A stretch of DNA of 53,835 bases. Origin: a virus (taxonomy: Duplodnaviria; Caudoviricetes). The translations under genes and the position numbers were made by a program. This document shows, in pieces, positions 1 to 53,835 of this stretch. Within the stretch, counting starts at the first letter, position 1. Each line of letters begins with the position of its first letter. The DNA lies in the IMG/VR virus record IMGVR_UViG_3300048599_000781, positions 1 to 53,835 of that record; one strand, given 5' to 3'. The notes under the pieces were generated by a model. That model had not been told where the DNA came from and made no database searches. It saw only the letters and a program-made list of their open reading frames with translations.

Positions 1-58
1 TTAGAGCGGTGGATTCATAACCCACAGGTCGGCGGTTCGATCCCGCCCCCAGCTACCA
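1..58 (+). tRNA. tRNA-Met(CAT), 3' part (5' end outside window); prophage integration target
   Basis: D-arm end TTAGAGC, anticodon arm GTGGA-TTCATAA-CCCAC with CAT at 16-18, T-arm GGCGG-TTCGATC-CCGCC, acceptor 3' strand CCCAGCT-A-CCA. Elongator Met rather than Ile2 or fMet is inferred from the acceptor stem. Confidence 0.9.
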
Positions 59-1653
59 ATCGTCCCCAACTTCGGCGCTGCGTGCTCGGCCGGGTCCTTG
101 AGGAAGCGGCTTAGGTCGCCGTGCAGGGTGATCTTCACCGGGCCGCCCTTGGCTTCGCTCAAAGGAGTGATGGCGATGTGGTCGACCAGGCCGCGCACGC
201 TCTCGATCAGGCCTCGATTGGCGGCGGCTTCTTCAGGATCGCGCTGGGCGTCGGCGAGGGTGGCCTGCAGCTTGGCGACCTGGACGGCGTAGGTCTCGGC
301 CGCGCGTGGGTGGAGGGCGACGACGGGCGTGGGCGGCATGTCGCCCTTCGCCAGGCGCTGCTCGATCTCCTCGCGCTCGGCCTCGAGGCTCACCAGGCGG
401 TCCCGCATGGCCTTGGTCGCCGAGCCGTCGCAGATCGCGTCCACCAGCCGCTCGATCGTGCGGCCCAGCTCGGCCGAGCGCTTCTCCAGCGGGCGGCGCT
501 CCTCGCGGTGGGCGCGGGCCTCGGCCTCATAGGCGTCGCGATAGGCGTTGACATAGGCCCGGACGGCCGCCGGCGACAGGAGGCGCGTGCGCAGGCCGTC
601 GAGGGCGCGCAGCTCGACCTCATTGCGGCGGACCGAGCGGTTGTTCGTGCAGAAGGCGGCGCCACGCTCCTTGTTGCCAGCGCAGTAGAGCACGCCGGCC
701 CGATGGGCGGTGTAGGACGATCCGCAGCGGCCGCATTTGAGCAGGCCGCTGAACAGGGAGGGTGAGCGCTTGTGCGTGAGGTCGGTCGCGCGCTGTTGCG
801 ATTCGGCCTGCCGCCGCGCGCGGACCTGCGCCCAGAGCGCCTCGGGCACGATCCGCAGGTGCGGAACCGGGGTCTGGCGCCACTCGCTTTCCGGCTTCAT
901 GACCGGCGTGCGCTTGCCGGTCATGGGGTCCTTCTTCACGACCATGCGGTTCCACACCTTCACGCCGGCATAGAGTTCGGTGTTGAGGACGCCGTTGCCG
1001 CGCTGACGGGAGCCGAGGATGGAGCTGGCGTTCCACCAGCCGCCGCGCGGTCCCTTGATCCCGGCGCGGTTGAGGCCGTCGGCGATCTCGCGGCCGCTAT
1101 GGCCGTCCACATAGTCCTGGCAGATGCGGACGATGATCGCCGCCTCCTCGGGCACGATCACCATGTCGCCGCCTGGGGCGGAGCGGTAGCCGAACAGGCG
1201 CGAGCCGGTGGCCAGGCCCTTCTCGGCGTTGGAGCGCATGCCGCGGCTGGTCTTCTGGCCCAGGTCGATCAGGTACTGCTGGGAGATCAGGCCTTTGAAC
1301 GCGACCTCCATCAGGCCGACCTTGTCGGTGGAGAGCGTGGCGATCGAGACGCCGGCGGCCGAGAGGCGATTGTAGAGGTGCGCCTGGTGTTCGAGGTTGC
1401 GGGCCAATCGGTCCATGTCCTCGGTCAGCAGCACGTCGTAGGCGCCGGCCTCGGCCGAGGCGAGGGCGGCGTTGACGCCTGGCCGGTTGGCCATGGCGAA
1501 GCCCGAGATCGCCGCGTCGGTGAAACTGGCGACGACGGACCAGCCCTGGCGTTCGGCGTGGGCCATGCAGACGGCGACCTGATCGGCGATCGAGCGCTCA
1601 TTCTGCCGTTCGTCGGAATATCGGGCGTAGATGGCGGCGCGCACGCGTGTCAC
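1..1653 (-). CDS. int: Large serine recombinase (integrase)
   Basis: N-terminal YARYS catalytic motif, DRLAR motif, recombinase domain, Zn-ribbon (LKCGRCG...YC...C) and coiled coil; last codons run antisense through the tRNA. Confidence 0.95.
   Translation of the reverse strand: MTRVRAAIYARYSDERQNERSIADQVAVCMAHAERQGWSVVASFTDAAISGFAMANRPGVNAALASAEAGAYDVLLTEDMDRLARNLEHQAHLYNRLSAAGVSIATLSTDKVGLMEVAFKGLISQQYLIDLGQKTSRGMRSNAEKGLATGSRLFGYRSAPGGDMVIVPEEAAIIVRICQDYVDGHSGREIADGLNRAGIKGPRGGWWNASSILGSRQRGNGVLNTELYAGVKVWNRMVVKKDPMTGKRTPVMKPESEWRQTPVPHLRIVPEALWAQVRARRQAESQQRATDLTHKRSPSLFSGLLKCGRCGSSYTAHRAGVLYCAGNKERGAAFCTNNRSVRRNEVELRALDGLRTRLLSPAAVRAYVNAYRDAYEAEARAHREERRPLEKRSAELGRTIERLVDAICDGSATKAMRDRLVSLEAEREEIEQRLAKGDMPPTPVVALHPRAAETYAVQVAKLQATLADAQRDPEEAAANRGLIESVRGLVDHIAITPLSEAKGGPVKITLHGDLSRFLKDPAEHAAPKLGTIGSWGRDRTADLWVMNPPL
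45..59 (+). repeat. attL core GCCCCCAGCTACCAA
   Basis: Identical to 52309-52323; overlaps the tRNA 3' end and the integrase 3' end. Confidence 0.9.
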
Positions 1654-3078: not shown

Positions 3079-3365
3079 GCGGCGTCGTCCAGGGCCTGGC
3101 CGGTCGCCTCCAGGCCGCCCAGGCGGGCCTGTTCGCGCACGCCGTGCGTGGTCAGGCAAAAGCCCGCCGCGTCCTTGCGGAGCAGGCCGACCCGCGACAT
3201 GGCGCGGAGCGCATGCTGAAAACGGGCCTTCTCCTCGGACCTCGGCCGGGCGCGGGCGCGGGTCGCGCGGAACAGGTCGCCGAAGCGGCGCGGGCCGGCC
3301 GCCAGTTCGGCGGCGATGCGCCACCACAGGCCGCCATGGCGGAACGGGTGCTGGTCGGGGCGCAT
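3075..3365 (-). CDS. Winged-helix-like hypothetical protein
   Basis: GPRRFGDL...LRAMSRVGLL...FCLTTHG resembles a wHTH; coupled ORF. Confidence 0.55.
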   Translation of the reverse strand: MRPDQHPFRHGGLWWRIAAELAAGPRRFGDLFRATRARARPRSEEKARFQHALRAMSRVGLLRKDAAGFCLTTHGVREQARLGGLEATGQALDDAA

Positions 3366-3697
3366 CAGTGGAGCGCTCCGGCTGCGGCCGCCTCGCCGGT
3401 CGCCGCCGGCTCGCCGAGCAGGTCGAGGAGCTGCTCCAGCATGTCGAGGCGGGCCGTGCAGGCGGCGCAGTCGCAGGCGTGCTGCGCTTCGATGTTGCGC
3501 GTGGCGACAAGCAGGTGCCGGACCACGGAAATGGTCGCGTAGGTGGAGAGGCGGCTGGCCGCCGCAGTCGTCGTGGTCTCGCTCTGGCCGGCCTCGCGCG
3601 TTTCGTCGGCTGCGACGATCACCACGCCCCGGCCGGTCTTGGACGCCAGGTCGTTGGCCTTGGCCTGCAGCATCATCTGGAGGGCGCGGCGGTTCAT
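3365..3697 (-). CDS. Hypothetical protein with CxCxxC motif
   Basis: HACDCAAC; coupled to the ParB-fusion gene. Confidence 0.6.
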   Translation of the reverse strand: MNRRALQMMLQAKANDLASKTGRGVVIVAADETREAGQSETTTTAAASRLSTYATISVVRHLLVATRNIEAQHACDCAACTARLDMLEQLLDLLGEPAATGEAAAAGALH

Positions 3698-5748
3698 TGC
3701 GCGGCCTCGTCGATATGCGGGCGGGCGGCGTCGTGCGCGGCCTCCAGCAGGGCGACCACCTTGTCGGCCTCGGTCGAGGTCAGCTTGCGGCTGACGGCGC
3801 TGCGGATCAGGCGGACGGCTTCGCGATTGGCGGCGGCGAGGCCCTGGATGACGCGCCCCTCGGCCGACACCCGGCGGACCTGGTCGGCGAAGGTCGCGGC
3901 GGACGGCGGCGGCGAGAGGACCTCGATGGCGGCGGCCGGCGGAAGGTTGCTGTCGCTGGGCTGAGACGCATCGGCTTCGGTCCCGGTCGGGGTTCCGGCG
4001 CCTGGCGCGGCGGCCTCCGGCGCCTCGGCCTTGGCGGGGCGTTCGGGATTGAGCCAGGCGATGGAGTAGGGGCCGGGGCCGACCGGCTCGGCGTCGTGTT
4101 CGAGCTGGCGATAGAGCAGCAGCTCGTCGCCGATAGCGGCGCGGCCGTCCTCGATGTGCGCGCCCTGCGATCCAAGCCAGTCCAGCGACCTGTCGGTCAG
4201 GGACATCAGGGTGCGCGCGCCCATGGGGGCGACGCGGATCAGCTTGGCGAAGATCATCGGCTGGGCGCGTCGGTCGAGGTGCCAGCCCTGGGCGACTTCG
4301 GCCCCCCAGTCGCCCGGCGTGCGGGCTTGGCCCGCATGCCAGATCTTGTGCGCCAGTTCGAGGATGACGAGCTGGTGCGCCTCGTCAGGGGCCGGTTCGG
4401 GTTCGGGCTCCTGACGAGGCGCTGGCGAGGCCTGGGGCGAGGCCTCGCCGCCGTCGGCCGCAGGGTCCGGGGGGGCGGGGTCCGCTGCGACGTTCGGATT
4501 GGGGGCGTTCGGATCGGGGGCGGCGGCGAGCGGGACGGCCGGTTCGGGCGGCGGGTTCAGCTCGGGCGTGGCGTATTCGCCCCTGCTGACCGTCGTGGCC
4601 TGGAGATCGCCCATGGCGGCCCGGCGCGCGGCCAGCAGGGCGGCCTGACGCTCCGGCGAGAAATCCTCGCCGAACGCCTTCTGCTCCAGGAAGCGATGCA
4701 GGTCCTCGGTGATGCGGACCTTGGCGACCACGTCGGGACCGGCGAAGGCCCAAGCCAGCAGCTTGCGGTCGGCCAGGGCGACCAGCGGCCCGCCGACCGG
4801 GGCGGCGTAGAGGCGGACCTGGTGTTCGTCGCCCTGCTTCAGGGGGCCGACCTCGGGCCGGGCGTCCAGCAGCTCCAGCAGGGCGAGGGTCAGGCGCGGA
4901 TTGATGTCCAGGGCCGGCCGCTCCTTCTTCTCGCCGACCATGGCCCGGCACTGGTCGACGGTCAGGCGCTGAGGATCGCCGTCGGGAAGGCGGGTGCGGG
5001 CCTTGTCGGCGTCGGACAATTCGCGGGCGAACTGGATGCGCTCCTGGATCGAGCGCTTCTTGCGCACGCCCGAGCCGATCAGCCGCTCGATCTGGGCGGC
5101 CGAGCGGCCGCGATCGGCGAGGCCCTTGTAGAACTCGGCCTCGTCCATCCAGTGCAGGTCCTCGCGCTGGAGGTTCTCGACGCCCATGATCTCGAAGGCC
5201 TCGTCGTCGGTGACCTCGCGCACCTGGCAGGGGACGGCGTAGTCCTCGGCCACCCAGCGCAGGTCGCGGGCGCGCTGGGCGCCGCGCAGGCGCCGCTCGC
5301 CGATGATCAGCTCGAAGCGGTCCTGGCCGAATTCGTCCCGGCGGGCGCGGACCATGAGCGGCTGCAGCACGCCCTTGTCGGCGATGGACTGGGCCATCTC
5401 CGGGATGGCGAACATGTCGTAGGTCTTGCGCGGGTTGTCGGGATTGAAATCGATCCGGTCGATGGGGATCATCACCACGTCGCCGGCCGGGGCCGCGCCG
5501 GTCTCGTAGAGGTCGAGGGCGGCCAGCACCCGCTCGCCGGCCTCGGTGACGGCGGCGACGTGCTTGGGGCCGGTCGTGGCGCGGAAGATGAAGCCCTCCG
5601 CTTCCAGGGAGTCCAGCTTGCGGTGGATGTGGTTGGGCAGGACGCCGGCGCGGTCGGCGAGGTCCGACGGCGAGGTCGCCTCGCCGGACCGGATGGCGCG
5701 CAGCAGCGGGCCGTTCTGGGCGGCGGTCGGGGAAAAGGGGACGGTCAT
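3694..5748 (-). CDS. wHTH-ParB/Spo0J-family fusion protein with long C-terminal extension
   Basis: N-terminal wHTH; ParB motifs NPRK, GVLQPL, GERRLR, ENLQREDL; HTH; Pro-rich linker. Confidence 0.85.
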   Translation of the reverse strand: MTVPFSPTAAQNGPLLRAIRSGEATSPSDLADRAGVLPNHIHRKLDSLEAEGFIFRATTGPKHVAAVTEAGERVLAALDLYETGAAPAGDVVMIPIDRIDFNPDNPRKTYDMFAIPEMAQSIADKGVLQPLMVRARRDEFGQDRFELIIGERRLRGAQRARDLRWVAEDYAVPCQVREVTDDEAFEIMGVENLQREDLHWMDEAEFYKGLADRGRSAAQIERLIGSGVRKKRSIQERIQFARELSDADKARTRLPDGDPQRLTVDQCRAMVGEKKERPALDINPRLTLALLELLDARPEVGPLKQGDEHQVRLYAAPVGGPLVALADRKLLAWAFAGPDVVAKVRITEDLHRFLEQKAFGEDFSPERQAALLAARRAAMGDLQATTVSRGEYATPELNPPPEPAVPLAAAPDPNAPNPNVAADPAPPDPAADGGEASPQASPAPRQEPEPEPAPDEAHQLVILELAHKIWHAGQARTPGDWGAEVAQGWHLDRRAQPMIFAKLIRVAPMGARTLMSLTDRSLDWLGSQGAHIEDGRAAIGDELLLYRQLEHDAEPVGPGPYSIAWLNPERPAKAEAPEAAAPGAGTPTGTEADASQPSDSNLPPAAAIEVLSPPPSAATFADQVRRVSAEGRVIQGLAAANREAVRLIRSAVSRKLTSTEADKVVALLEAAHDAARPHIDEAAQ

Positions 5749-8346: not shown

Positions 8347-9868
8347 CGTTACTTTTCCCCCCAGCGGCTTGACCTGCCGCTACTTGAGCTGCGCCCACAA
8401 TGGGAGCGCGAGTCCCTCAGAAGACTACACGTATGGGGAGTCCAGCAACCTGGCGCCCCCTGCGAGGCGACTCCGAGTCGCGTCTGGCGAGATTGGAGCG
8501 GCGTCGTGGGGCGGGGATCTACTCGCCTTCGCCCGTCACGATCCGGCGGGCCTGGTCGTAGAGGGCCCCGAGCTCTTCCGGCGAAAGGCCGGGCGCGTCC
8601 GCGCCCAGCGCGTAGACCGCGAACTCCCTGATCTCGCGGTCGGTCTCGCGGTCCAGCCGCGCCTCAATGAAGGCGGCGATCTCGGCCGCTGCGAGCTGCT
8701 CGCTCACGTGCAGCAAGCCATCAGCGTCGACCAGCCGGCGTTTGGCCCTTCGGAAGGCGGCGAGACGTTCGGGGCGGCCGGCGATGCGTGTCACGGCCGC
8801 CTCGATGTCCGTCGCGGAGGCGGCCGGTGTAAGGCGGCGCACGTGTGCGGCGACCCGGTCGCGGTCGATCTCGGCCTCGGTCGCCATCATGACCAGGTCG
8901 ATCGCCACCTCGACCTCGTCGGGATCGAGCGCTCCATCTGCGTGGGCGAGGTAAGCCAGTACGCTCAATTCATCCCGGCATTTGCGAATGGCGGCCGCCG
9001 TTGGATCGCCCTGGCGAGCTGGATCGAACAGCGCGTGGGCCTGGAGCCAAGCCAGCGGCTCGTCTGGAACTTCACCAGTCGCCAGGCAGGTAAGTTCGAT
9101 CACCCGGTCGGCGCGGAACGATCGCAGCTCTCCGCGCAGGTGGCAGAACCCGCGGAAATAGACTTTGCCGCCTTCGCGCCAGACCGACTGCAATGTGACG
9201 GCTCGCTCGCTGTCGTCGCCTGCCGCCGTCTCGTAGAGGATGTGAATGACCGTTGGCATGACCGCGCTGCGGTCGATGTCCTCGACGGCTTCGCTGAGCG
9301 GACGAGCCGGGCTCTCGTTGGGTCCCGCCGCAAACAGCGGGTGAGAAAGCAGCCAGGTCTGAGGGTTATGAGCGATCTGGCCAGTGGTCAGGTCGGTCAG
9401 TTGGAGCGTCCCGTCTGCGCGGAACGCGCGCGCTACCCGGCGCAGATGGCATATGCCCCGGAAATAGACCTTCCCGCTCTCGCGCCACACCTTCTCAAGT
9501 GTGATGTCCCGTTCGCTTTGCTCGCCGGCCGTATCGTAGCGGATACGGATGTCAGGCGGCGGCAGGTCCTCAGTGGGCTCGTTGGTCACCAGGCCGTCGG
9601 CGACTTCCTCCGCCAGTTCGGAGAGCGCCAAGGCCGGCGCAGCGCCCATCTCAGGCGGGTCTTCCCCCGCCGGGGCGCGCTGACGGCGGCCCAATCGATC
9701 CAGCAGGCGCGCCACGCCCCGTCTTGCGACGTCGACATAGGCCGACGCCTTCGGCGCCTCGTGCATTGCCGCCATGGGCCGCTCCCCCTTCACCCGATCC
9801 CCGCGCCACGCTCGCATGAGTCCCGAGCCGCGCCACAACCGATGGAGGCCAGCCATGGCTTTCGGTAA
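8129..9868 (+). other. Sense-strand bridge ORF 1 spanning the antisense cassette
   Basis: ATG 8129 overlaps the cro TGA (ATGA); open for 579 codons; stop overlaps the next gene (ATG 9855); no recognisable domain. Confidence 0.5.
8519..9775 (-). CDS. Tandem WYL-domain + TerB-like protein (antisense moron)
   Basis: Two ~75-aa repeats (Y...SER..TL..VWRE.GKVYFRG.CHLR...R.FRAD) followed by TerB-like LAHADGALDPDE...VDADGLLHVSE; RBS GGGGAG before ATG 9775. Confidence 0.8.
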   Translation of the reverse strand: MAAMHEAPKASAYVDVARRGVARLLDRLGRRQRAPAGEDPPEMGAAPALALSELAEEVADGLVTNEPTEDLPPPDIRIRYDTAGEQSERDITLEKVWRESGKVYFRGICHLRRVARAFRADGTLQLTDLTTGQIAHNPQTWLLSHPLFAAGPNESPARPLSEAVEDIDRSAVMPTVIHILYETAAGDDSERAVTLQSVWREGGKVYFRGFCHLRGELRSFRADRVIELTCLATGEVPDEPLAWLQAHALFDPARQGDPTAAAIRKCRDELSVLAYLAHADGALDPDEVEVAIDLVMMATEAEIDRDRVAAHVRRLTPAASATDIEAAVTRIAGRPERLAAFRRAKRRLVDADGLLHVSEQLAAAEIAAFIEARLDRETDREIREFAVYALGADAPGLSPEELGALYDQARRIVTGEGE

Positions 9869-10286
9869 GCCACGCGCGCCAGGCGCGTTCGCCCCGCGCG
9901 CCCCCAAGCCCGCCGCCGCGGTCCGCGCCGAATGGACCGCGGCCATCGCCTATGCCGGCGACATCTGCCTGCACGCCGAACTGGTGGACGGGGGCGCGGA
10001 CGAGGCGACCCTGCGCCAGCCGGGGCAGGCGCTCTCGCGGCTGATGGTGGCGCTGCGCGACCTCGCGCCCGAGAACTTCCCGGTCGGGTCGAGCGCCTGC
10101 CGGACCATGGCCGGGGCGTTCCTGCACCTGGCGCGCTACCTGGTGCTGCCGACGACCGGGCCGATGGCGCGCACGGCGTGCGCCGCCTTCCTGGCGCCGG
10201 GGGTCCGCCAGCTCGACGCGGCCCTGCACCAGCTCCGCGCCGAAGAGGCCTCGGCCTGGCGCGCGCAGACGGGGCGGGACGAATGA
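9855..10286 (+). CDS. Hypothetical early protein
   Basis: GGAGG RBS at 9844; high-GC codon usage; coupled to the next ORF. Confidence 0.65.
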   Translation: MAFGKPRAPGAFAPRAPKPAAAVRAEWTAAIAYAGDICLHAELVDGGADEATLRQPGQALSRLMVALRDLAPENFPVGSSACRTMAGAFLHLARYLVLPTTGPMARTACAAFLAPGVRQLDAALHQLRAEEASAWRAQTGRDE

Positions 10287-10450: not shown

Positions 10451-10914
10451 GCGGCCAGCCCGGATCATCGCCGCGCCGGCGGCTGGACCCCTACCATATC
10501 GCGTTCGCCCGCGCCCGGCGTCCGCGGACGGGCTGGCAGACCCTGGCGCAGATGCTGGGGGTGAACGCCGAGGACCTGCGCCGCGCCTGCGAGGACACCG
10601 CGGTCTATTCCGCGCCCGAGCCTGAAGCGCCGATCTTCGTGCATCCGCCCAAGCCGACGCCGAAGGACCGGCAGCGGCCGCGCAGCGTCCAGGCCGGAAC
10701 CATGGAGGCGGCGGTGCTGGCCGCCCTGGCCGGCGGCGCGCGGCGGCGGGTCCGGCCGCTCGCCTGGGGCGCGGGCCTGACCGAGAAGCAGACGCGCTCG
10801 CTGCTGGTCACCCTGACGACCAAGGGCATGGTCGAGGGGCGCGGCGAGGTCGGCTGGCGGCTGACCGCGGCCGGCAAGGCGGCGCTGGCCGGCTTCGGGG
10901 GCGGCCATGGCTGA
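10447..10914 (+). CDS. HTH/wHTH DNA-binding protein
   Basis: GWQTLAQMLGVNAEDLRR and C-terminal wHTH-like LTTKGMV...WRLTAAG. Confidence 0.65.
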   Translation: MSGQPGSSPRRRLDPYHIAFARARRPRTGWQTLAQMLGVNAEDLRRACEDTAVYSAPEPEAPIFVHPPKPTPKDRQRPRSVQAGTMEAAVLAALAGGARRRVRPLAWGAGLTEKQTRSLLVTLTTKGMVEGRGEVGWRLTAAGKAALAGFGGGHG

Positions 10915-13141
10915 CGGAAGCTGGCCGCTGCATCCGGCAAGGCGGCCGATCCATGCCGGCGCGCCCGGCAAGCTGAAGGTGGTGGGGTTCGCCGGCGGGG
11001 GCGGCTCGTCCGAGGCGGTGCGCGAGGCGCTGGGGGCCGACCCGGACCTGGCCATGAACCACTGGATGGTCGCGGTGCTGGCGCACCAGCGGCATTTCCC
11101 GCGCACCGAACACCGCTGCGCGGACATCTGGCAGGAAGATCCGCGCGCCTGGCGGCCGGGGGAGCCGATTGGCTTCGCCTGGTTCTCGCCCGACTGCACC
11201 GACTTCTCGAAGGCCAAGGGCAAGGCCCCGCGGTCCGAACGCATCCGCGGGCTGGCCTGGTCGATCATCCCCTGGGCCGTGTTCCGGACGATCGACACGA
11301 TCATGATCGAGAACGTCGAGGAGTTCGTGAAGTGGGGGCCGGTCTATCGCAGCGGCCTCAAGGCGGGCGAACCGATCCCGAAGCGACGGGGCGAGACCTT
11401 CCAGCGGTTCGTGCGGCGGCTGAAGCAGGTCGGCTACTGGGTCGAGCATCGCTTCCTGAACGCCGCGGACTATGGCGCGCCGACCACGCGCAAGCGGTTC
11501 TACGCCATCGCGAAACATGTCGGCGTCATCCGGGTGGGCCGGATCGAGGCCGGGCTGGAGGCCTCGCCGATCGTCTGGCCCGAGCCGAGCCACGCGCCGC
11601 GGCATCTGGCCGAGAAGCTGGGCCGCAAGCCCTGGGTCGGGGCCTGCGAGATCATCGACTGGAATGAGCGCTGCCCGTCGATCTTCCTGACGCCGGAGGA
11701 GGCTAAGGCCGAGGGGCTGAAGGTCAAGCGGCCGCTGGTCGGCGCTACGCACAGCCGGATCGCCCGCGGGCTGGAGCGGTTCGTGATCGGCTCGGCCGAG
11801 CCGTTTGTGGTTCCGTTGACCCACCAGGGCGACCTGCGGACGCACGCCGCGCGCGATCCCTTGCGGACGGTGACCGGCGCGCAGCGAGGGGAGCTGGCTG
11901 CGGTCGACGTCGGGATGATCTCCAACGCCTACGGTTCGAACACCCGCGGCGGGCGTGGCGATCCGCGCGATCCTGCCAAGACGTTGACCGGCGCGCATCA
12001 TAGCGGCCTGGTCGTCGGCTCCTTGGTGCGGACTGACATGCACCAGTCGAACGCCAGGTGCGCCTACGATGCTGCGGACCCGCTGCGGACCGTGACCTCG
12101 GCGGGCGGGCACGCCGCAATGTCGGCGACCATAGTGGGCGTGGGCGGGCGGCGCGGGTCCAGTCCGCCGACGAGCGCGGCGCGGCCCTTCCCGACCGTGA
12201 CGGGAAAGGCGGACGCCGCTCTGGCCACGGGCTACCTCGTCCCGCGCTATGGTGAGCGCGATGGCCAGGCGCCTCGCGCCCTGCCGGTGACCGGGCCATA
12301 TCCCGCCGTCGTGCCGGACCAGAACGGCGGCTCGCTGGCCGCCGTCAGCCTGCACCGCCAGTTCGGGCGCAGCATCGGCGGCCCGGCCAACGATCCCGCA
12401 CCGACGCCGATGCCGGGTGGCGGCGGCAAGACCGCGGTCCAGATCGCCTGGCTGGGCCGACAGTTCGGGTCGAATGTCAGCGGCCGCCCGATCGGCGACC
12501 CAGCGCCGACGGTGATGTCCGGAGGGGGCGGCGGCAAGACCCAGCTCGTGGTCGGGTCTCTCGCCTCCTACTACGCGACCGGAGAGGGGTCCGGCCTGGC
12601 CGATCCGATGCGGTCGGCGACCGGGCGGGCGCGGCACGGCCTGACCCTGGCGCATGTGCTCCAGGCCAATACCGGCCTGATCGGGCGGGCGGCGACCGAC
12701 CCGCTGTCGACCATCGTGCAGCTCGGCTCGACCCAGCAACTGATCGAGACGGCCCTGGCCCTCGAGGGCGGGCCGGTCGGCCGCCGCGCGCAGGTGCTGG
12801 AATTCCTGTGGCGCCACTTTGGGCCTCCGACGCCGGACGAATGGCGCGATCCGGCGGCGACGCTGCAGGGCCGGCTGAAGTTCGGCCTGGTGGTCATCGA
12901 CGAGCTGATCTGGATGATCGTCGATATCGGCCTGCGGATGCTCAAGCCGAGCGAGCTGGCGGCGGCCATGGGCCTGCGGCCCGGCTTCGACCTTTCGGTC
13001 AACGCCCTGGGCGAGCCGGTCAGCAAGACCCACCAGATCCAGATGATCGGCAACATGGTCAGTCCGCCGCCGGCCATCGCGATGATCCGGGCCAACTGCC
13101 CGGACCTGATCGAACCCCAGGATTGGAAGGAGGCGGCATGA
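10907..13141 (+). CDS. C5-cytosine DNA methyltransferase with repeat-rich insertion
   Basis: Motif I FAGGGG, catalytic SPDC, motif VI ENV, motif VIII YGAPTTRKR, motif X IGNMV. Confidence 0.9.
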   Translation: MADGSWPLHPARRPIHAGAPGKLKVVGFAGGGGSSEAVREALGADPDLAMNHWMVAVLAHQRHFPRTEHRCADIWQEDPRAWRPGEPIGFAWFSPDCTDFSKAKGKAPRSERIRGLAWSIIPWAVFRTIDTIMIENVEEFVKWGPVYRSGLKAGEPIPKRRGETFQRFVRRLKQVGYWVEHRFLNAADYGAPTTRKRFYAIAKHVGVIRVGRIEAGLEASPIVWPEPSHAPRHLAEKLGRKPWVGACEIIDWNERCPSIFLTPEEAKAEGLKVKRPLVGATHSRIARGLERFVIGSAEPFVVPLTHQGDLRTHAARDPLRTVTGAQRGELAAVDVGMISNAYGSNTRGGRGDPRDPAKTLTGAHHSGLVVGSLVRTDMHQSNARCAYDAADPLRTVTSAGGHAAMSATIVGVGGRRGSSPPTSAARPFPTVTGKADAALATGYLVPRYGERDGQAPRALPVTGPYPAVVPDQNGGSLAAVSLHRQFGRSIGGPANDPAPTPMPGGGGKTAVQIAWLGRQFGSNVSGRPIGDPAPTVMSGGGGGKTQLVVGSLASYYATGEGSGLADPMRSATGRARHGLTLAHVLQANTGLIGRAATDPLSTIVQLGSTQQLIETALALEGGPVGRRAQVLEFLWRHFGPPTPDEWRDPAATLQGRLKFGLVVIDELIWMIVDIGLRMLKPSELAAAMGLRPGFDLSVNALGEPVSKTHQIQMIGNMVSPPPAIAMIRANCPDLIEPQDWKEAA

Positions 13142-14145: not shown

Positions 14146-14398
14146 GCGGTCGCTCACCGAGGAGGAATTGACGGTCGCGAAGGTCGGCGGGCCGCCCTGG
14201 GGCTGGATGTGCCTGGAGGTCGTGGACCTAGTCAGCGGCGAGCCGATCGACCGGGTCCTGGAAGTCGACGCCGTCGGCGGGTGGCTGGTCCGCTACGTGC
14301 TCGGCCGAGATGGGCGGATTTTGCTGGTCCATGGGACGCCCGTGCTCGAACGGATCGAGGGGCGGTTCGTGATCCGGCGGAAGTCCGCCCATGCGTAG
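14138..14398 (+). CDS. Hypothetical protein
   Basis: Coupled ORF with beta-rich composition. Confidence 0.6.
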   Translation: MLKRSLTEEELTVAKVGGPPWGWMCLEVVDLVSGEPIDRVLEVDAVGGWLVRYVLGRDGRILLVHGTPVLERIEGRFVIRRKSAHA

Positions 14399-16988
14399 GC
14401 GCGAGGACTACGAGGCCTTCCTCAAGGCCAAGGTTCGGCTGGCCGACCCGTCGGGGTTCGACCTGCCGGAGCGGGCGCTGCATCCCTGGCTGAAGCCGCA
14501 TGCCGGGAAGGCGGTGCGCTGGATGCTGCGGGGCGGCCGGCGGGCGGTGTTCGCCAAGTTCGGCCTGGCCAAGACCTCCATGCAGCTCGAAGCCGGCCGG
14601 CGGACGCTGGAGCACCTGGGCGGCCGGGCGCGGGGCCTGATCGTCGCGCCGCTGGGCGTGCGCCAGGAGTTCATGCGCGACGCCGCCAGCCTGGGCGTGG
14701 CGATCCGGTTCGTGCAGTCGCTGGTCGAGTGCTGGGGGCCGGGCCTTTACCTGACCAACTACGAGAGCGTGGTGGGCGGCAAGGTCGACCCGTCCGGCTT
14801 CCAGTTCGTCAGCCTGGACGAGGCGGCGTGCCTGCGCGGCATGGGCGGGACCAAGACTTTCCGCGAGATGATGCGGCTGCTGGAGGGCGTGGCCTATCGG
14901 TTCGTGGCCACGGCGACGCCATCGCCCAACGATTTCGTCGAGCTGTTGGCCTATGCGGCGATCCTGGGGATCATGGATATCGGCCAGGCCAAGACGCGGT
15001 TCTTCCAGCGCAATTCCGAGCAGGCCGACAAGCTGACCCTGCATCCGCACAAGGAGCGGGAGTTCTGGCTGTGGGTGTCGAGCTGGGCGCTGTTCATCTC
15101 GCGGCCGTCGGATCTCGGCTGTTCGGACGACGGCTACGAGCTGCCGCCCATGCAGGTGCGCTGGCATGAGGTGAAGGTCGATCACCGCGACGCCGCGCCC
15201 GAGAAGGGCGGGCAGGGGGTGCTGTTCCGCGATGCGGCGATCGGGGTGGTGGAGAGCGCGCGGGAGAAGCGCGCCACCCTGGTCGCGCGCGTCGCCAAGC
15301 TGGCGCAGATCGTGGCCGGCGACCCGGCCGCGCACCGCATCCTCTGGCACGACCTGGAGGACGAGCGGACCTTGATCGAGCAGGCCGTGCCGGGCGCGTT
15401 CTCGGTCTACGGCGCCCAGGACGGGGCGGTGAACACCGAGCGGATCATCCAGTTCTCGGACGGGCTGTTCCCGTACCTGGCGGCCAAGCCGGTGATGGCG
15501 GGCGCCGGGTGCAATTTCCAGCGGCATTGCCACAAGGCGGTGTTCGTCGGGGTGGGCTTCAAGTTCCACGACTTCATCCAGGCCATCCACCGCATCCAGC
15601 GGTTCGGCCAGACGCAGCCGGTCGAGATCGACGTGATCTACGCCGAGAGCGAGCGGCGGGTGCGGCGCGACCTGGAGCGCAAGTGGGCTCAACACAATCT
15701 GATGGTGGAGAAGATGGCGGGGATCATCCGCGAGTTCGGGCTGTCGAACCTCGACATGGCCCAGGCGCTGACGCGCTCGCTTGGGGTCGAGCGGGTGGAG
15801 GTGGCGGGCGAGGGGTATTCGATCGTCAACAATGATTGCGTGGCCGAATGCATGGGCATGGCCGACGACAGCGTCGACCTGATCGTCACCTCGATCCCGT
15901 TCTCGACGCAGTACGAGTATTCGCCGCGCTACGAGGACTTCGGCCACACCGACGACAACGGCCACTTCTTCGAGCAGATGGGGTTCCTGGCGCCCGAACT
16001 GCTGCGCATCCTCAAGCCCGGCCGGGACGCCTGCATCCATGTGAAGGACCGGATCGTGCCGGGCGCGCTGACCCGCCTGGGCTTCCAGACGGTCTATCCG
16101 TTCGCCGACGACACCCGCGCGGCCTTCATGCGGGCCGGGTTCGCCTATATCGGCAAGATCACGAACACGACCGACGTCGTGCGTGAGAACAACCAGACCT
16201 ATCGGCTGGGGTGGAGCGAGCAGCTCAAGGACGGGACGCGGCAGGGGACCGGTATCCCGGAGGAAATTCTGATCTTTCGCAAGCCGCCGTCGGACCGCAG
16301 CGACGGCTATGCGGACACGCCGGTCGCCAAGGCGCGGCCGGACTATAGGAACGAAGCCGGCGAGCCGGTCAGCTACGAGACGCCGGGAAAGATTCCTGTG
16401 AGCGGCACCGGCTATTCGCGCGGGCGCTGGCAGCTCGACGCGCACGGCTACTGGAAGTCGAGCGGCGACCGGCTGATGCGGGTCGAGGAATGGGCGAGCT
16501 GGGACCGGCTGGACGAGGTCTATCGGCTCTGGCGGCAGTTCAACCTCAACGAGGTCTACGACTACGAGCAGCACGTCCGGATCGGCGAGGCGCTGGACGT
16601 GATGGGCAAGCTGCCGCCCACCTTCATGCTGCTGCCGCCCCATAGCTGGCATCCCGACGTCTGGACCGACGTGGCGCAGATGCTGTCGATGAACACGTTG
16701 CAGTCGGCGGCCGGGGCGGAAAAGCACATCTGCCCCTTGCCCTTCGACATCGTCGACCGGCTGATCCGCCAGCGCTCCATGCCCGGAGAGCTGGTGTTCG
16801 ATCCGTTCGGCGGCTTGGGGACCGTGCCCTATCGCGCCCTGAAGCTCGGCCGGCGCGGGGCCTGCGTGGAGCTGAACGCCGACTATTTCCTGGCGGCCTG
16901 CAAGTATGTCGAGGCCATGGCGCGGGAAAAGGCCATGCCGACCCTGTTCGACCTGACGGGCGAGCGTCAGTCGGAGGCGGCGGCGTGA
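14391..16988 (+). CDS. SNF2-like helicase fused to amino (N4/N6) DNA methyltransferase
   Basis: Degenerate Walker A FGLAKT, LDEA, TATP, QAIHRIQRFGQ; MTase motif IV TSIPF followed by motif I DPFGGLGT (beta order). Confidence 0.9.
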   Translation: MRRREDYEAFLKAKVRLADPSGFDLPERALHPWLKPHAGKAVRWMLRGGRRAVFAKFGLAKTSMQLEAGRRTLEHLGGRARGLIVAPLGVRQEFMRDAASLGVAIRFVQSLVECWGPGLYLTNYESVVGGKVDPSGFQFVSLDEAACLRGMGGTKTFREMMRLLEGVAYRFVATATPSPNDFVELLAYAAILGIMDIGQAKTRFFQRNSEQADKLTLHPHKEREFWLWVSSWALFISRPSDLGCSDDGYELPPMQVRWHEVKVDHRDAAPEKGGQGVLFRDAAIGVVESAREKRATLVARVAKLAQIVAGDPAAHRILWHDLEDERTLIEQAVPGAFSVYGAQDGAVNTERIIQFSDGLFPYLAAKPVMAGAGCNFQRHCHKAVFVGVGFKFHDFIQAIHRIQRFGQTQPVEIDVIYAESERRVRRDLERKWAQHNLMVEKMAGIIREFGLSNLDMAQALTRSLGVERVEVAGEGYSIVNNDCVAECMGMADDSVDLIVTSIPFSTQYEYSPRYEDFGHTDDNGHFFEQMGFLAPELLRILKPGRDACIHVKDRIVPGALTRLGFQTVYPFADDTRAAFMRAGFAYIGKITNTTDVVRENNQTYRLGWSEQLKDGTRQGTGIPEEILIFRKPPSDRSDGYADTPVAKARPDYRNEAGEPVSYETPGKIPVSGTGYSRGRWQLDAHGYWKSSGDRLMRVEEWASWDRLDEVYRLWRQFNLNEVYDYEQHVRIGEALDVMGKLPPTFMLLPPHSWHPDVWTDVAQMLSMNTLQSAAGAEKHICPLPFDIVDRLIRQRSMPGELVFDPFGGLGTVPYRALKLGRRGACVELNADYFLAACKYVEAMAREKAMPTLFDLTGERQSEAAA

Positions 16989-17991: not shown

Positions 17992-18623
17992 GGTGGTTAG
18001 TCGGGAATACCGAGAAGCATGTGTCGCACAAGGTGGGCATGGTGCCAGTAATCGTCGGCGGCATCCTGCAGCGGTTTCCAGTCGATCTGTTGCGCTTCGA
18101 GACTTTGCTGTTCTTTGAACCGGATCGCGGCGGACAAGAAGCTGCTCATCGCTCCACGAAGAGCTTCGCAGCGGGCGTAGAGCGATACGCTTGGCCAGCG
18201 GATCAAGGGTTCGCCGAGAAGACGGTCGAACGGGGCCGTCACCTTGTGTTCCTCGGCTGTCCGAAGATAGGTGGCGAGGCTGCGGGCGTTTTTCTCGCTC
18301 ACCCTGTAGTAGATCTGGTCGAACGATCCGCAGGCGTACTTCACGCTATGCTCGATCGCGCGCTCGAAATCGAGTCTGGCAGCCTCTCTTTGTTGCTCGG
18401 CGACTTCGAAGGGCGCTCGGGCCGCCTTGATGGCGACCCAGATGGCGACAACCGTTCCGATCCCTTGAACCCAGGTCGCCATAGTCGCGCTGAAGACGCC
18501 GAAAGCCGAGGCGGTGACGGCGATGATGGCGCAGCCGACCATGAGGCCGACGCCGAACAGCAATTGGGTGGTCGTTTCTTTCATGCGGTGAAGCTTCCCA
18601 CAGCCGGGAGGCGCGCGCCATGA
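17988..18623 (+). other. Sense-strand bridge ORF 3
   Basis: GTG 17988 overlaps the nuclease TGA (GTGA); TGA 18621-18623 overlaps ATG 18620 (ATGA). Confidence 0.5.
17997..18584 (-). CDS. Antisense membrane-anchored moron B
   Basis: Two N-terminal TMs, the second WVQGIGTVVAIWVAIKAA, then a helical domain; more AT-rich than its flanks. Confidence 0.75.
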   Translation of the reverse strand: MKETTTQLLFGVGLMVGCAIIAVTASAFGVFSATMATWVQGIGTVVAIWVAIKAARAPFEVAEQQREAARLDFERAIEHSVKYACGSFDQIYYRVSEKNARSLATYLRTAEEHKVTAPFDRLLGEPLIRWPSVSLYARCEALRGAMSSFLSAAIRFKEQQSLEAQQIDWKPLQDAADDYWHHAHLVRHMLLGIPD

Positions 18624-20263
18624 CCCGTACCTATGGCGCGTTGGCGCGGGCGGGCGACGGCTGGGTGATCCGGGACCTGGAGCCGCATGTGGCGATCCGG
18701 TTCAAGGCGTTCTTTCCGCGGGTCCCGAAGGCTTCGGCCGGGCCGTTCAAGCTGCATGGCGACCACGCCACGGCGGCCGACCTGCACTGGTTCATGCAGC
18801 GCTATCCGCTGCGGGCCGAGGACGCGGTGCTGGCCGCCCTGACGCGGGACAAGACCGGGTACGAGGCCGCCCAGGCCGAGGTCGGGCGGATCATGGCGCC
18901 GGACTATGCGCCGCCGGGCTATGCCGGCCTGCAGCCAGGCCAATCGGTGCGGCTGCACCAGGCGCGGACCGTGGAGCTGATGCAGCGGTTCCGCGGCGTG
19001 CTGTGCGGCGACGACATGGGCGAGGGCAAGACCTACACCGGCGGGGCCTGCTGCCTGGTTCCCGGCGCCCTGCCGGCGACCATCGTCTGCCCGCCGAACC
19101 TACGCGGCCAGTGGGTGGACAAGCTGCGGGCGTTCACGACGCTCGACGTCCATGCGGTGATCGGGACCAAGCCCTACAACCTGCCGCCCAGCGACGTGCG
19201 GATCATCGGCTACACCCAGCTCGAAGGCTGGGTCGACCTGTTCGAGATGATGGGCGCCGGCTTCCTCGGCTTCGACGAGATCCACGAGCTGCGCCATGGC
19301 GAGGAGACGGCCAAGGGGCAGGCGGCGGCGCGGTTGGCCAGCCTGGCGCGCTATGTCGTCGGCTTCAGCGGCACGCCGATCTTCAACTACGGCGAGGAAA
19401 TCTGGAACATCATGGCGCTGATCCGCCCGGACCTGCTGGGGCCGCGGGAGGATTTTCAGCGCGAGTGGTGCCGGGGACGCGAGGTGAAGGACCCGGAGGC
19501 GCTCGGCTCCTACCTGCGCGAGCAGCACGCCCTGGTGCGCAAGAAGGGCTCCGGCCCGCCGCCGAACGTGATCGTGGAGACCATCGGCCACGACGTGCAG
19601 GTGCTGGAGAGCGTGGAGCTGCTCGCCCACCGGCTGGCCCACAAGGCGGTCAGCGGGGCGTTCATGGAGCGCGGGCAGGCGGTCCGTGAACTGGACCTGA
19701 TGATGCGGATGCAGACCGGGATCGCCAAGGCGAAGGCGGTGGCGGCGTTCGTCCGCATCCTGGTCGAGGGCGGCGAGCCGGTGATCCTCTTCGGGTGGCA
19801 TCGCGAGGTCTACGAGATCTGGATGGCCGAGCTGAACGACCTCGGCGTGGTCATGTACACCGGTAGCGAGACGCCCACGCAGAAGGACGCGGCCAAGCGG
19901 GCCTTCCTGGAGGGGGGGGCGCAGGTCTTCATCATGTCGCTGCGGTCGGGCGCCGGCGTCGACGGGCTGCAGGCGCGCTGCAAGACCGTGGTGTTCGGCG
20001 AGCTGGACTGGTCGCCGGCCATGCACGGCCAGTGCATCGGGCGTGTGAACCGGGAGGGCCAGGCCTGCTGGCCCGAGCCGGTGACGGCGATCTACCTGGT
20101 CGCCGACGACGGGAGCGATCCGCCCATGCAGGACACGCTCGGGATCAAGGCCAGCCAGGCCCATTCGATCGTCGACCCCGGCATGGGGCCGCAAAGGGTG
20201 GAGCGCGACACACGCCCGATCGAGGCGCTGATCGCACGCTATCTGGAGCGTAGGGCGGCATGA
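18620..20263 (+). CDS. SNF2-family (DEAD/H) helicase
   Basis: DDMGEGKT, DEIH, SGTP, GVDGLQ, QCIGRVNREGQ. Confidence 0.9.
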   Translation: MTRTYGALARAGDGWVIRDLEPHVAIRFKAFFPRVPKASAGPFKLHGDHATAADLHWFMQRYPLRAEDAVLAALTRDKTGYEAAQAEVGRIMAPDYAPPGYAGLQPGQSVRLHQARTVELMQRFRGVLCGDDMGEGKTYTGGACCLVPGALPATIVCPPNLRGQWVDKLRAFTTLDVHAVIGTKPYNLPPSDVRIIGYTQLEGWVDLFEMMGAGFLGFDEIHELRHGEETAKGQAAARLASLARYVVGFSGTPIFNYGEEIWNIMALIRPDLLGPREDFQREWCRGREVKDPEALGSYLREQHALVRKKGSGPPPNVIVETIGHDVQVLESVELLAHRLAHKAVSGAFMERGQAVRELDLMMRMQTGIAKAKAVAAFVRILVEGGEPVILFGWHREVYEIWMAELNDLGVVMYTGSETPTQKDAAKRAFLEGGAQVFIMSLRSGAGVDGLQARCKTVVFGELDWSPAMHGQCIGRVNREGQACWPEPVTAIYLVADDGSDPPMQDTLGIKASQAHSIVDPGMGPQRVERDTRPIEALIARYLERRAA

Positions 20264-51555: not shown

Positions 51556-52152
51556 TCAGGCGACCAGCCCGCGATCGAGATCTCGGCGGCGCTGGGCGTC
51601 CGCGATGCGTTGGTCCAGTTCCTTGCGCCAGTGGGGGAATGGGTTCTGGGCCGGATCGTGCCAGGGGAACATGACGTCCCACCTGCTGGCGTTGCATTTG
51701 GCGCAGGGGCCGGTGATCAGTTTTCCGATGTTCTTGATGGATGTCGCCGCATCGGCCTTGCCATGCTCGACGAGCTGGCGCAGCAACGCCGCCGGCGTTG
51801 TCATCCGCTTTCCTCCGCACCCCATACATCTGACCAGGGCGCCCACATTGGCCATGCCGGCGAGCTGGCCGAGCGTGATCGTCAGGCTAGGTTCCTCTCT
51901 GAACTCCATCGCGCAGCCGTCGAGCTTGTTGCAGCGGAGCGCCCGCATGATCTGGGCGGCCGAGACGTCGGCCAGGCCCTGCTTGAGGAGCCGGTCGTAC
52001 TCGAAACGATAGGTGCGCCTGCATTCCTGTGTCTGGCATCGGCCGACGACGTTGCAGCGCCGCTGATAGTAGCCGAGCACTGTCGACACCTCGGCGATGT
52101 AGCCGGCGTCGATCGTCCAGCCCTTCGGCGGGAATTGTCCGCTTCCGCTCAT
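51556..52152 (-). CDS. Tandem Zn-ribbon protein, LexA-boxed
   Basis: CQTQEC...LRCNKLDGC and CMGC...GPCAKC pairs. Confidence 0.8.
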   Translation of the reverse strand: MSGSGQFPPKGWTIDAGYIAEVSTVLGYYQRRCNVVGRCQTQECRRTYRFEYDRLLKQGLADVSAAQIMRALRCNKLDGCAMEFREEPSLTITLGQLAGMANVGALVRCMGCGGKRMTTPAALLRQLVEHGKADAATSIKNIGKLITGPCAKCNASRWDVMFPWHDPAQNPFPHWRKELDQRIADAQRRRDLDRGLVA

Positions 52153-52189: not shown

Positions 52190-52308
52190 GCGGCGCAGCG
52201 CCACGAACGGCGTTCGCGGCGGCGCATCCGTTGCGGCGCCAGGGCTGGCTCGTGTTGTCGCAGGCCCGATCTAACAGGCGATCGCCAAGGTGGGGACAGC
52301 TTGAAGCA

Positions 52309-52323
52309 GCCCCCAGCTACCAA
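52309..52323 (+). repeat. attR core GCCCCCAGCTACCAA
   Basis: Identical to 45-59; phage-like genes end here. Confidence 0.9.
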
Positions 52324-52516
52324 CGCTCTGCATGTTGCGTTCGCAGGCTGTTTCTCTTCTTCGATGAGCCGAGCCAGGGCGCCGTGGACCACACGCCGAC
52401 AGGCCCGCCCCAGCTTCGTTGCGAAGCCAGCCGAACCTCTGGAGCTGATCCTGATTGACCCCGGTCAATCGGTGCGACGGCCGACTCGCCGACTATGCGC
52501 CGGAGAGGGCGCGCTG

Positions 52517-53029
52517 ATGGCATGGCTATCGACCAAGACTTACGCATCCGAACGCGGCCTCTCGTGCGCCATGCGCCAGTGGGCGGCCGATAGCCACTGT
52601 GCGGTTCTGCATGGCTACTCCCTCGGCTTCAGGTTCGTCTTCGCGGCCGAGCAGTTGGATGCGCGCGGCTGGGTCGTGGATTTCGGTCGATCCGGGTTTG
52701 GTCGGATCCGGACGTGGCTGCACGAGACCTTCGATCATTCCTTGTTGGTCGCGGAGGACGATCCCTTCCGCGCTGACCTTGTCCGGTTGGGCGAACTCGG
52801 TCTGGCCAACGTGCGCCTCGTTCCAGGTACGAGTTGCGAGCGGCTCGCGCAGTTCGTGTTCGAGACCGCCCAGCCGATGATCGCCGCGGCCACGAAGGAG
52901 AGATGCTGGATCGCCGAGGTCGAGTGTTCCGAACACGGTGCGAACAGCGGTGTCTTCAGAAATCCCGACGCCGTATTGCGCGAGATATCGGCGGATGCCC
53001 TGGCGAGATTGGCGGCGGCGCTGACGTAA
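52517..53029 (+). CDS. queD: 6-carboxytetrahydropterin synthase / PTPS family (outside prophage)
   Basis: SHCAVLHGYS, VVDFG, FDH, SCE, EH..NS motifs; RBS GGAGAGGG. Confidence 0.8.
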   Translation: MAWLSTKTYASERGLSCAMRQWAADSHCAVLHGYSLGFRFVFAAEQLDARGWVVDFGRSGFGRIRTWLHETFDHSLLVAEDDPFRADLVRLGELGLANVRLVPGTSCERLAQFVFETAQPMIAAATKERCWIAEVECSEHGANSGVFRNPDAVLREISADALARLAAALT

Positions 53030-53199
53030 TTGGCATCCGGCGATAATGTGGGACGCCCATAGCCGAGCCTCTCCCAAGGCCGGCCTCCAATCGCGGCAGG
53101 CATCGGCGCGCCGCGATTTCCGGTTGACACATTATTAATAATTAACACAAGTGGCGGGATTGCGTTCGTTGAACGCTGTCTTTTTAGGTGGGGTATCCT

Positions 53200-53835
53200 A
53201 TGCGAAAGGCTATCATGGCTGGCGTCGCTGCGGCGGCGCTCGCGGTCGCCGGTTCGGCTTCGGCTGCGACGATCATTCTGCAATCCGACTTCGAAAGCGT
53301 AGCGGTCGCCCCGGGCAGCTATGTGATCGTCAATTCGGCGGACGGCTGGACCAAGGGTGCGGGAACCGCCGGCATCGAAGTCCAGAACAATGTCGCCGGC
53401 GCTCCGGCGCCCGACGGCGGCGCCAAGTTCGTCGAACTCGACAGCAATTCCAACAGCTCCATGTATTACACCCTCGCCGCCGGCGGGTCGTACACCATGA
53501 GCTTCCTCTATTCGCCGCGTCCGAACGTGGGCTCGGGCAGCAACGGCATCACGCTGTTCGTGGGCGGCAACATGCTCAACCCGCCGGGCGAGATCACCGG
53601 CGACGGTGGTTCGACCACCGACTGGGTGCTGCATACGGTGAACTTCACGGCCAACGCCGGCGATCAGGTGCTGTTCGCGGCTACCGGCGCGTCGGACTCG
53701 CTGGGCGGCTATCTCGACAACATCACCATCTCGGCGGTTCCGGAACCGGCGACATGGGCGATGATGATCGCCGGCTTCGGCATGGCCGGCGTGGCCATCC
53801 GTCGTCGCCACGCGATCAAGGCGATTGCGGCGTAG
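53200..53835 (+). CDS. Host PEPxxWA-CTERM protein with carbohydrate-binding-like domain
   Basis: Signal peptide ending SASA; FVELD...YSPRP...SLGGYLDNI; VPEPATWAMMIAGFGMAGVAIRRR. Confidence 0.9.
   Translation: MRKAIMAGVAAAALAVAGSASAATIILQSDFESVAVAPGSYVIVNSADGWTKGAGTAGIEVQNNVAGAPAPDGGAKFVELDSNSNSSMYYTLAAGGSYTMSFLYSPRPNVGSGSNGITLFVGGNMLNPPGEITGDGGSTTDWVLHTVNFTANAGDQVLFAATGASDSLGGYLDNITISAVPEPATWAMMIAGFGMAGVAIRRRHAIKAIAA

Follow-up and report, generated by a model that had tools for sequence, protein, structure and literature searches.

The DNA analyzed here, hereafter the window, is a 53,835-bp provirus record of IMG/VR (IMGVR_UViG_3300048599_000781; G+C 69.6%), which carries a lambda-like siphovirus prophage of Phenylobacterium. 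Our reading of the sequence is that the attachment site of this phage, attP, lies inside the gene of its own integrase, int, and that integration into the 3' end of a host tRNA-Met gene, and excision from it, exchange the last residues of the enzyme. The integrase is a large serine recombinase by its sequence, and the same layout appears throughout a large clade of its relatives. The ending encoded by the phage carries a conserved non-polar motif that resembles a proteolysis tag, and we tentatively suggest that it could well mark the phage form of the enzyme for rapid turnover.

Attachment Sites and the Two Forms of Int

A 15-mer, GCCCCCAGCTACCAA, occurs exactly twice in the window, at 45 to 59 and at 52309 to 52323. 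No match was obtained in any of 100 shuffled windows, and a chance repeat is thereby ruled out. The left copy (attL) overlaps the 3' part of a host tRNA-Met gene (CAT anticodon) on the + strand at 1 to 58, with CCA at 56 to 58; the right copy is attR, and the prophage body occupies 60 to 52308. ARAGORN finds no whole tRNA within the window, because the window begins inside the tRNA-Met gene and lacks its 5' part. Searching with the QueD-like protein of the right flank led to L009, a locus of a Phenylobacterium metagenome-assembled genome (MAG), whose QueD-like copy is 99% identical to that of the window. This locus has a complete tRNA-Met at 1897 to 1973 (ARAGORN), with a 3' part identical to that in the window, and the right flank of the window follows directly after it in collinear order. 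Since the tRNA-Met of L009 is joined straight to this flank, L009 represents the unoccupied attB, and the DNA between the repeats is an insertion. Sequence comparison further shows that the phage core regenerates the 3' part of tRNA-Met in the prophage. On these comparisons, we are nearly certain that the two copies are attL and attR of one lambda-like prophage, brought into the 3' end of tRNA-Met in Phenylobacterium by a large serine integrase.

In the prophage, int is a complete reading frame of 550 codons on the - strand (1 to 1653, stop TAA at 1 to 3) that retains all three domains of the enzyme and is not split into two parts. It ends ...IGSWG-RDRTADLWVMNPPL, where GSWG is encoded by the core and RDRTADLWVMNPPL, found in the prophage only, is 14 codons read antisense to the tRNA (4 to 45, - strand). 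The same tail ends three homologous proteins (P0028, P0060, and P0065) and the integrase of locus L067. When the ends of the prophage were rejoined with a script that sliced the window, the frame instead encoded a 548-amino acid Int ending ...IGSWG-LLQAVPTLAIAC; this tail of 12 residues (..LAIAC) and its TAG stop at 52271 to 52273 occupy 52271 to 52309 on the - strand and can be read only from the excised or circular genome. The initial annotation had placed the 15-bp core inside int, read GSWG from it, and deduced both tails and the phage-form stop from an attR-attL junction. Its coordinates and both peptides proved right, and the exchange of the Int C terminus on integration and excision, which it had proposed, is borne out by the repeat, the empty site in L009, and the two reading frames. 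The tail swap itself is established by the sequence.

The catalytic and zinc-binding parts of the protein, by sequence, are those of a large serine integrase. Pfam places the N-terminal resolvase domain at residues 6 to 146 (PF00239, E 5.2e-23), followed by the Recombinase domain (PF07508, E 1.1e-19) and Zn_ribbon_recom (PF13408, E 1.5e-9). In a comparison of 35 sequences, S13, R11, Q17, D81, and R82/R85 are invariant or nearly so, and the zinc-ribbon cysteines C307, C310, C324, and C335 are invariant. AlphaFold2 (AF2) models of the window Int and of a homologue 64% identical to it have mean predicted local distance difference test (pLDDT) scores of 88.2 and 89.4, and the former shows the long helices of a coiled-coil at 361 to 408 and 414 to 436. 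For the homologue model, the best fold matches are to the integrases of SPbeta, PhiC31, and Bxb1 (Foldseek E 2e-18 to 1e-13; VIA Z 13 to 18), and these align with it only up to about residue 517. Beyond this point, confidence falls: pLDDT is below 50 at residues 526 to 550 of the prophage form, with values of 34 to 36 and no structure in the tRNA-coded tail, and below 50 in a linker at 521 to 543 of the phage-form homologue P0001. The stretch encoded by the att site is thus predicted by the models to form a disordered C-terminal extension outside the recombinase fold. We also considered, and rejected, a tyrosine integrase at another place in the record; PF00589 had no match there, although the same search matched 14 of 14 control genomes.

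The edges of the element show some minor differences. Directly after ACCA, L009 reads CAGCTCTG and attR of the window reads ACGCTCTG; L009 1973 to 1980 and window 52322 to 52330 differ by a CA/AC swap just past the tRNA CCA and by an A/G change nine bases further on. To judge from these few bases, the outer edge of attB is polymorphic among strains. Given the swap, the 15th base of the repeat may be common by chance, and the identity derived from the tRNA may be 14 bp. The IMG/VR record itself begins exactly at the int stop codon (1 to 3) and extends 1.5 kb into host DNA on the right; its borders therefore do not match the att sites, and the true element runs from 45/60 to 52308/52323.

The Layout Is Shared by a Clade of Serine Integrases

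The homologues examined were the 120 best, which are 50 to 64% identical to the window Int, and 148 representatives of 50%-identity clusters. A scan for close relatives with the single protein had found none in viral contigs and one real relative in genomes (L005, 41% identity); further members of the family were recovered by alignment-based scans. Pooling the database hits with reading frames from the fetched loci gave 307 full-length sequences, some of them duplicates, of which 152 have antisense-tRNA tails, 130 have phage-type tails (119 unique), and 25 were left unclassified. The endings of the first group are the antisense translation of the T-arm and acceptor stem of a tRNA. The commonest is ..VAGGGIEPPTCGL, and ..GSWGRDRTADLWVMNPPL is the one seen in the window. 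At the DNA level, ..VAGGGIEPPTCGL comes from the same 3' end of tRNA-Met that the window has, in a frame shifted by one base, and it stops at a TGA that is antisense to the anticodon loop. More distant homologues have tRNA-type endings such as ..GFEPTTFRL, ..GLEPPTRGL, and ..RFELTTFRL.

The neighboring DNA agrees with this classification. A tRNA-Met overlaps the end of int in all 21 metagenome loci with a tRNA-type tail and in none of the 8 others, and the overlap is also present in L005, L046, and L049. Among 18 genome loci from Phenylobacterium, Caulobacter, Brevundimonas, and other Caulobacteraceae, the overlapping gene is tRNA-Met in 14 and tRNA-Phe in one. The latter, L123, is from a Phenylobacterium MAG and encodes a 52%-identical integrase whose gene end, at about 3089 to 3164, reads into the tRNA. 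Because of this tRNA-Phe case and the tails from other tRNAs in distant representatives, the clade seems to have switched tRNA targets repeatedly.

Both states of the site can also be seen in natural sequences. The int genes of L076 (attP form) and L082 (attL form) are 97.4% identical in DNA; the two are the same up to the core and diverge right after it. Ten provirus records were checked for both att copies, and two copies were found in two of them, G002 and G010, the other records ending short of attR. In each of the two, the sequence at the far core copy encodes an in-frame phage-type tail, ..ARVRL in G002 and ..TVKLAV in G010, the latter matching the natural tail of L076. Isolated phages have the phage form as well. 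The integrases of Rhizobium phage RR1-A (L130) and Microcystis phage Mae-JY30 (L131) are 35 to 37% identical to the window Int and end ..GRFVA and ..GVIAA, within the tails ..VVAGERFEQSPQIILGRFVA and ..VVAEVRSNPSPPFRFGVIAA, respectively. The proximal parts of these two tails resemble an antisense tRNA T-arm, which predicts a tRNA attB for both phages. Judged by these sequences, the placement of att within int is common to, and kept across, a large clade of serine integrases.

Three further loci deserve mention. In G010 (L054/L134), int reads into a partial tRNA 3' fragment of about 45 nt, with more DNA beyond it, and G006 (L053 and L064) has two different integrases of this family, of which the inner one has a phage-type tail, as expected at a phage-phage junction; these provirus records appear to hold tandem elements. 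L121, from a Phenylobacterium MAG, has an integrase homologue beside tRNA-Met whose frame is lost before its end, and it is likely a decayed prophage integrase.

attP Rebuilt from the Prophage Ends

The attP rebuilt from the window is an imperfect palindrome of about 50 bp, in which 17 of 26 arm positions pair, a value reached by none of 500 shuffles, and it lies within the last ca. 25 codons of int. The center of the dyad, CC on the tRNA strand (GG in the int sense), falls inside the core at 47 to 48 and is the predicted crossover dinucleotide. We infer that the crossover takes place at this central CC within the 15-bp core, leaving the tRNA intact. The P' half-site (49 to 74) is inside the int coding sequence and encodes ..PKLGTIGSW, and the P half-site (52285 to 52310) encodes the tail residues GLLQAVPT on the - strand; GTCCCCAC in the P half mirrors TTGGGGAC at 63 to 70. 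Among 11 sequences tested, the window and ten relatives, the dyad exceeds shuffles in 8, all with the same center, and does not in L061, L062, and L064. About eight residues at the start of the tail (GLLQAVPT here, GY..PT/PP in most relatives) mirror the G-rich codons upstream of the core. As these proximal residues are dictated by the P arm, a peptide reading applies only to the residues beyond them, five in the window and 8 to 14 in relatives.

A Conserved Motif at the Phage-Coded C Terminus

The ends of the 119 unique phage-type tails were compared with 2000 shuffles of each tail. The last residue is Ala in 58 of them (shuffle mean 14, maximum 26) and one of A, V, C, L, or G in 100; at position -2, 57 tails have Ala, 26 Arg, and 12 Val; L, I, V, F, or M occupies position -3 in 72; and Arg stands at position -4 in 42, preceded by a mostly hydrophobic position -5. 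Ala-Ala ends 32 tails (shuffle mean 1.4, maximum 6), and 36 end in [LIVFMA][AV][AVC] (shuffle mean 1.7, maximum 7). Shuffles never reach the observed counts of A/V/C/L/G, of hydrophobic residues at -3, or of Ala-Ala. The family consensus is phi-R-phi-A-A/V/C, and the commonest ending is IAC (9 of 119), as in the window. For comparison with other proteins, nine doubtful tails were dropped, and 162 open reading frames (ORFs) from the host loci and the window served as background. The loose pentapeptide [LFYWIVM]-x-[LIVFM]-[AV]-[AVC] ends 29 of the remaining 110 tails and none of the background ORFs, 8 of which end in Ala-Ala. The antisense-tRNA tails are without this ssrA-like motif. Homologues do, then, keep a non-polar ending encoded by attP, at a frequency above all shuffles; the initial annotation had named this as a point on which its proposal could be checked.

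Conservation at the end of an ORF could come from an element in the DNA, such as an outer binding site of the integrase or of its recombination directionality factor (RDF), or a transcription signal. The proximal tail residues are indeed driven by DNA, being the arms of the attP palindrome, and the G+C content at third codon positions (GC3) is low in the tail, which fits extra constraints on the DNA. The terminal motif, on the other hand, lies outside the 26-nt arm compared in the dyad analysis, and it is present in both frames through the core, as LAIAC, LKIAC, and TVRAA in the GSWG frame and as RIAC, IRIAV, and others in the VAGG frame. The same residues are also spelled with different codons, A-V being GCC GTA, GCG GTT, and GCC GTC in L062, L064, and L076. 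A scan of the regions around the two junctions found no promoter-like site at either and no terminator-like site at the right one; the single terminator-like site near the left junction (+ strand, 1668 to 1680) is not above shuffles (mean 1.0). Since the motif occurs in either frame, varies in its A-V codons, and persists in homologues only 31 to 39% identical to the window Int, selection appears to act on the peptide and not on the DNA, and we regard a DNA-level origin as very improbable.

The exchange could instead be neutral, a by-product in a compact genome whose attP overlaps an int end that the enzyme can spare, with no function for the tails. The predicted disorder of the tail region would fit this explanation, as would the wide variation in tail sequence and length (13 to 34 residues from the core motif) and the composition of the distal tail codons, whose GC3 is 0.65 to 0.72 (0.72 over 120 codons) versus 0.88 in the int body (5800 codons). 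Because GC3 is not raised in the tail, codon bias gives no support for coding selection. Moreover, every residue of the prophage tail is dictated by the tRNA, and the enzyme that carries it nevertheless has to function in excision. Set against these points, the last five positions are strongly non-random relative both to same-tail shuffles and to background C termini, the motif holds to about 31% identity, in both core frames and in the Rhizobium and Microcystis phages, and bacterial proteins generally avoid hydrophobic C termini, according to a degron study (PMC10862746). Given the conserved peptide end, a neutral origin, like a DNA-level one, is less likely, and we consider it rather improbable.

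The Phage-Form Tail as a Candidate Degron

The reading that we prefer, while holding it tentatively, is that the phage-coded end acts as a degron. In Int made from an infecting or excised phage, it would serve as an ssrA-like tag for a cytoplasmic AAA+ protease of the ClpXP type, making the enzyme short-lived. Integration would remove the tag, and the prophage form of Int would persist until a directionality factor triggers excision. On the sequences at hand, we think it quite possible, if somewhat short of probable, that a tag for rapid turnover is present on the phage form and absent from the prophage form. More speculative, and somewhat less likely, is the broader proposal that this is a clade-wide, self-editing switch read by a protease, in which attP is carried in the disordered tail of the integrase, integration into a tRNA gene deletes an ssrA-like tag, and the whole lineage is dedicated to tRNA genes. 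The clade in question spans the Caulobacterales, with more distant members in the Rhizobium and Microcystis phages.

The proposal draws on a screen in Escherichia coli of random tags at the C terminus. In that study (PMC10862746), potent degrons were almost all ClpXP-dependent and ssrA-like, with the consensus [L/F/Y/W]-[L/A/R]-L-A-A, in which Arg at the second position is favorable; a terminal Ala-Ala was critical, tags had at least 5 residues, position -3 was hydrophobic, and FKLVA was degraded in vitro. The family end phi-R-phi-A-A resembles this consensus very closely in sequence. We also count as a fit to a degron the fact that the tail follows a disordered linker (P0001 521 to 543). The initial annotation had suggested that the LAIAC tail may be a degron or a directionality module; the non-polar motif is indeed conserved, but LAIAC itself ends in Cys and not in Ala-Ala. 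It fits the consensus at positions -5, -4, and -2, is near to it at -3 (Ile for Leu), and fails at -1. Tsp, which the initial annotation had offered as a possible reader next to ClpXP, is a periplasmic protease and therefore an unlikely reader of a cytoplasmic integrase.

In addition to the low GC3, several observations weigh against a degron. The window tail is not the only one to depart from the screen, since 78 of the 110 tails lack an Ala-Ala end and only one of the 110 meets the strict E. coli consensus, the rules of which may not transfer to the Caulobacterales. The tail counts come from related sequences and not from independent events. The attP junction of this very phage was not seen in public reads, but all 17 runs listed hold at most 0.09 of the sampled words, conserved parts of relatives at best, and this result says nothing either way. 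Two structural predictions also point away from a free tag. In the AF2 model of the phage-form homologue, the last residues (547 to 550) are drawn as a paired strand, at low confidence (block pLDDT 58), and a complex prediction of its body (1 to 520) with its tail (521 to 551) scored 0.35, the best control reaching 0.01. This score gives weak support to an association. Among solved complexes, 58 of 80 pass the mark used, as do 2 of 110 mismatches; at scores of 0.60 or less, those that pass are only 7 of the 80, together with both of these mismatches. The runs share at least 53% of their contacts, the partner has a pLDDT of 37 or more, and the two partners are pieces of one chain.

These predictions suggest a different role, in which the C-terminal residues are a docking strand on the integrase body, in cis or between subunits, that tunes activity or directionality. 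The phage form would then be suited to attP x attB and the prophage form to RDF-dependent attL x attR, a serine counterpart of the IntP and IntX forms of the Mx8 integrase. The paired strand of the phage form has no equivalent in the prophage form, whose tail is modeled without structure, and the alternation of hydrophobic residues at -1, -3, and -5 would suit a beta-strand. In Mx8, integration alters the 3' end of int in a way that changes specificity without inactivating the enzyme, according to a review (PMC6070905). Against docking stand the low confidence of the strand, a model that does not show the partner surface or the contacts, and the solved serine integrases, which align to about residue 517 only and hence offer no structural precedent for such a strand. 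The tail, in addition, cannot be essential for catalysis, because both isoforms have to be active, one in integration and the other in excision. We judge docking to be on the unlikely side and retain turnover of the phage form as the working explanation.

Relation to Known Integration Systems

Among integrases that are changed by their own integration, Mx8 IntP comes closest to the present case. In this Myxococcus phage, attP is inside the integrase coding sequence; integration gives a recombinant int whose 3' end is new, and the altered enzyme remains active but has different properties (PMC4383910; PMC6070905). The likeness, which extends to Mx9, thus lies in attP within int and in a prophage int with a different 3' end. 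The Mx8 enzyme is a tyrosine recombinase, whereas the window Int is a serine recombinase; in addition, only the last 12 residues of the phage form are exchanged here, and the ending encoded by the phage is a conserved ssrA-like motif. The target of Mx8 is reportedly also a tRNA gene.

The precedent for a tag removed by integration is mycobacteriophage BPs, where integration removes an ssrA-like tag from the repressor to give a stable prophage form, and where the integrase also has a C-terminal proteolysis signal (PMC4557955). The initial annotation had drawn this parallel, and the signal on the BPs integrase makes it apt. BPs and the phages of clusters G, I, N, and P share with the window an attP in coding sequence and a C terminus that changes on integration. 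In BPs, however, the split gene is that of the repressor and the integrase is of the tyrosine type, whereas here the ORF that crosses the core is int, and the role of its end as a degron is inferred. A third comparison is with the SSV-type archaeal integrases, whose recombination site is within the integrase ORF (PMC4383910; PMC7253208). These are also tyrosine-type enzymes, and int is split in two by integration, whereas here a full-length enzyme is kept and the extreme tail alone changes.

With the PhiC31, Bxb1, SPbeta, and Listeria A118/LI integrases, the window Int shares the three-domain fold with its coiled-coil and a short palindromic attP around a central dinucleotide. The canonical enzymes target protein-coding or intergenic sites, whereas the window Int targets a tRNA gene. 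Their attP is intergenic; here it is in a C-terminal extension of int, beyond the point, at about residue 517, where solved structures stop aligning. In its target, the window Int is closer to the tyrosine integrases of P4 and lambda-like islands, which use the 3' end of a tRNA gene and carry a phage-borne copy that regenerates it (PMC4383910). The recombinase family differs, and the attP of those islands is about 250 bp (PMC4383910), against a dyad of about 50 bp here. A database paper of 2015 states that only tyrosine integrases, and not serine integrases, are known to target tRNA genes (PMC4383910), and a survey of 2026 reports that tyrosine integrases preferentially target RNA loci (PMC13626063). 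Our literature search found no serine integrase described with attP inside its own gene or as dedicated to tRNA genes, while the supplementary tables of large surveys (TIGER/Islander, ProBord, large recombinase) may list some.

If the tail controls the stability or activity of Int, these phages would regulate their integrase by the very DNA rearrangement that it performs, with no extra regulator. Two known principles, integration that alters the integrase (Mx8) and integration that removes a tag (BPs), would be combined in an unrelated enzyme family. Integration state would be recorded in the enzyme itself, and a lineage of serine integrases would be dedicated to tRNA genes. For genome engineering, where serine integrases are standard tools, the clade would be a source of new orthogonal enzymes whose tRNA targets are predictable and whose att sites can be read from the 3' end of int, with two natural isoforms and a built-in reporter of state. 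The layout also explains an oddity of annotation, in that proteins annotated as 'recombinase family' that end in ..GGIEPPTCGL or ..GFEPTTFRL are integrases in the prophage form, reading into a tRNA.

Other Features of the Prophage and Its Flank

A palindrome of the type GCGAAC..GTTCGC, at 52195 to 52225, lies shortly beyond the phage-form stop codon and is followed in the window and in L062 by TTGACT (int sense); a similar palindrome is found 3' of int in L063. It may be an operator and promoter of the next gene in the circular genome. The ORF that would follow int in that form (51556 to 52152, - strand) had no tblastn match in any attP-form locus, a result that is neutral with regard to the junction.

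A Pfam scan of 39 ORFs identified structural genes of a lambda-like siphovirus (TerL gpA, portal, gpD, gpE, tail tube, and tape measure) together with ParB-like and WYL proteins, two DNA methylases, an SNF2 helicase, and a DnaA_N/HTH protein. In the early region, a ParB-N/HTH protein of 684 amino acids is encoded at 3694 to 5748, a WYL-domain protein at 8519 to 9946, and a C5 cytosine methylase at 10907 to 13141. These are followed by an N6/N4 methylase fused within an 865-amino acid protein (14391 to 16988) and by an SNF2-type helicase (18620 to 20263). The host flank on the right (52324 to 53835, + strand) consists of the QueD/PTPS-like gene (PF01242) at 52517 to 53029 and a gene for a PEP-CTERM protein (PF07589) at 53188 to 53835.

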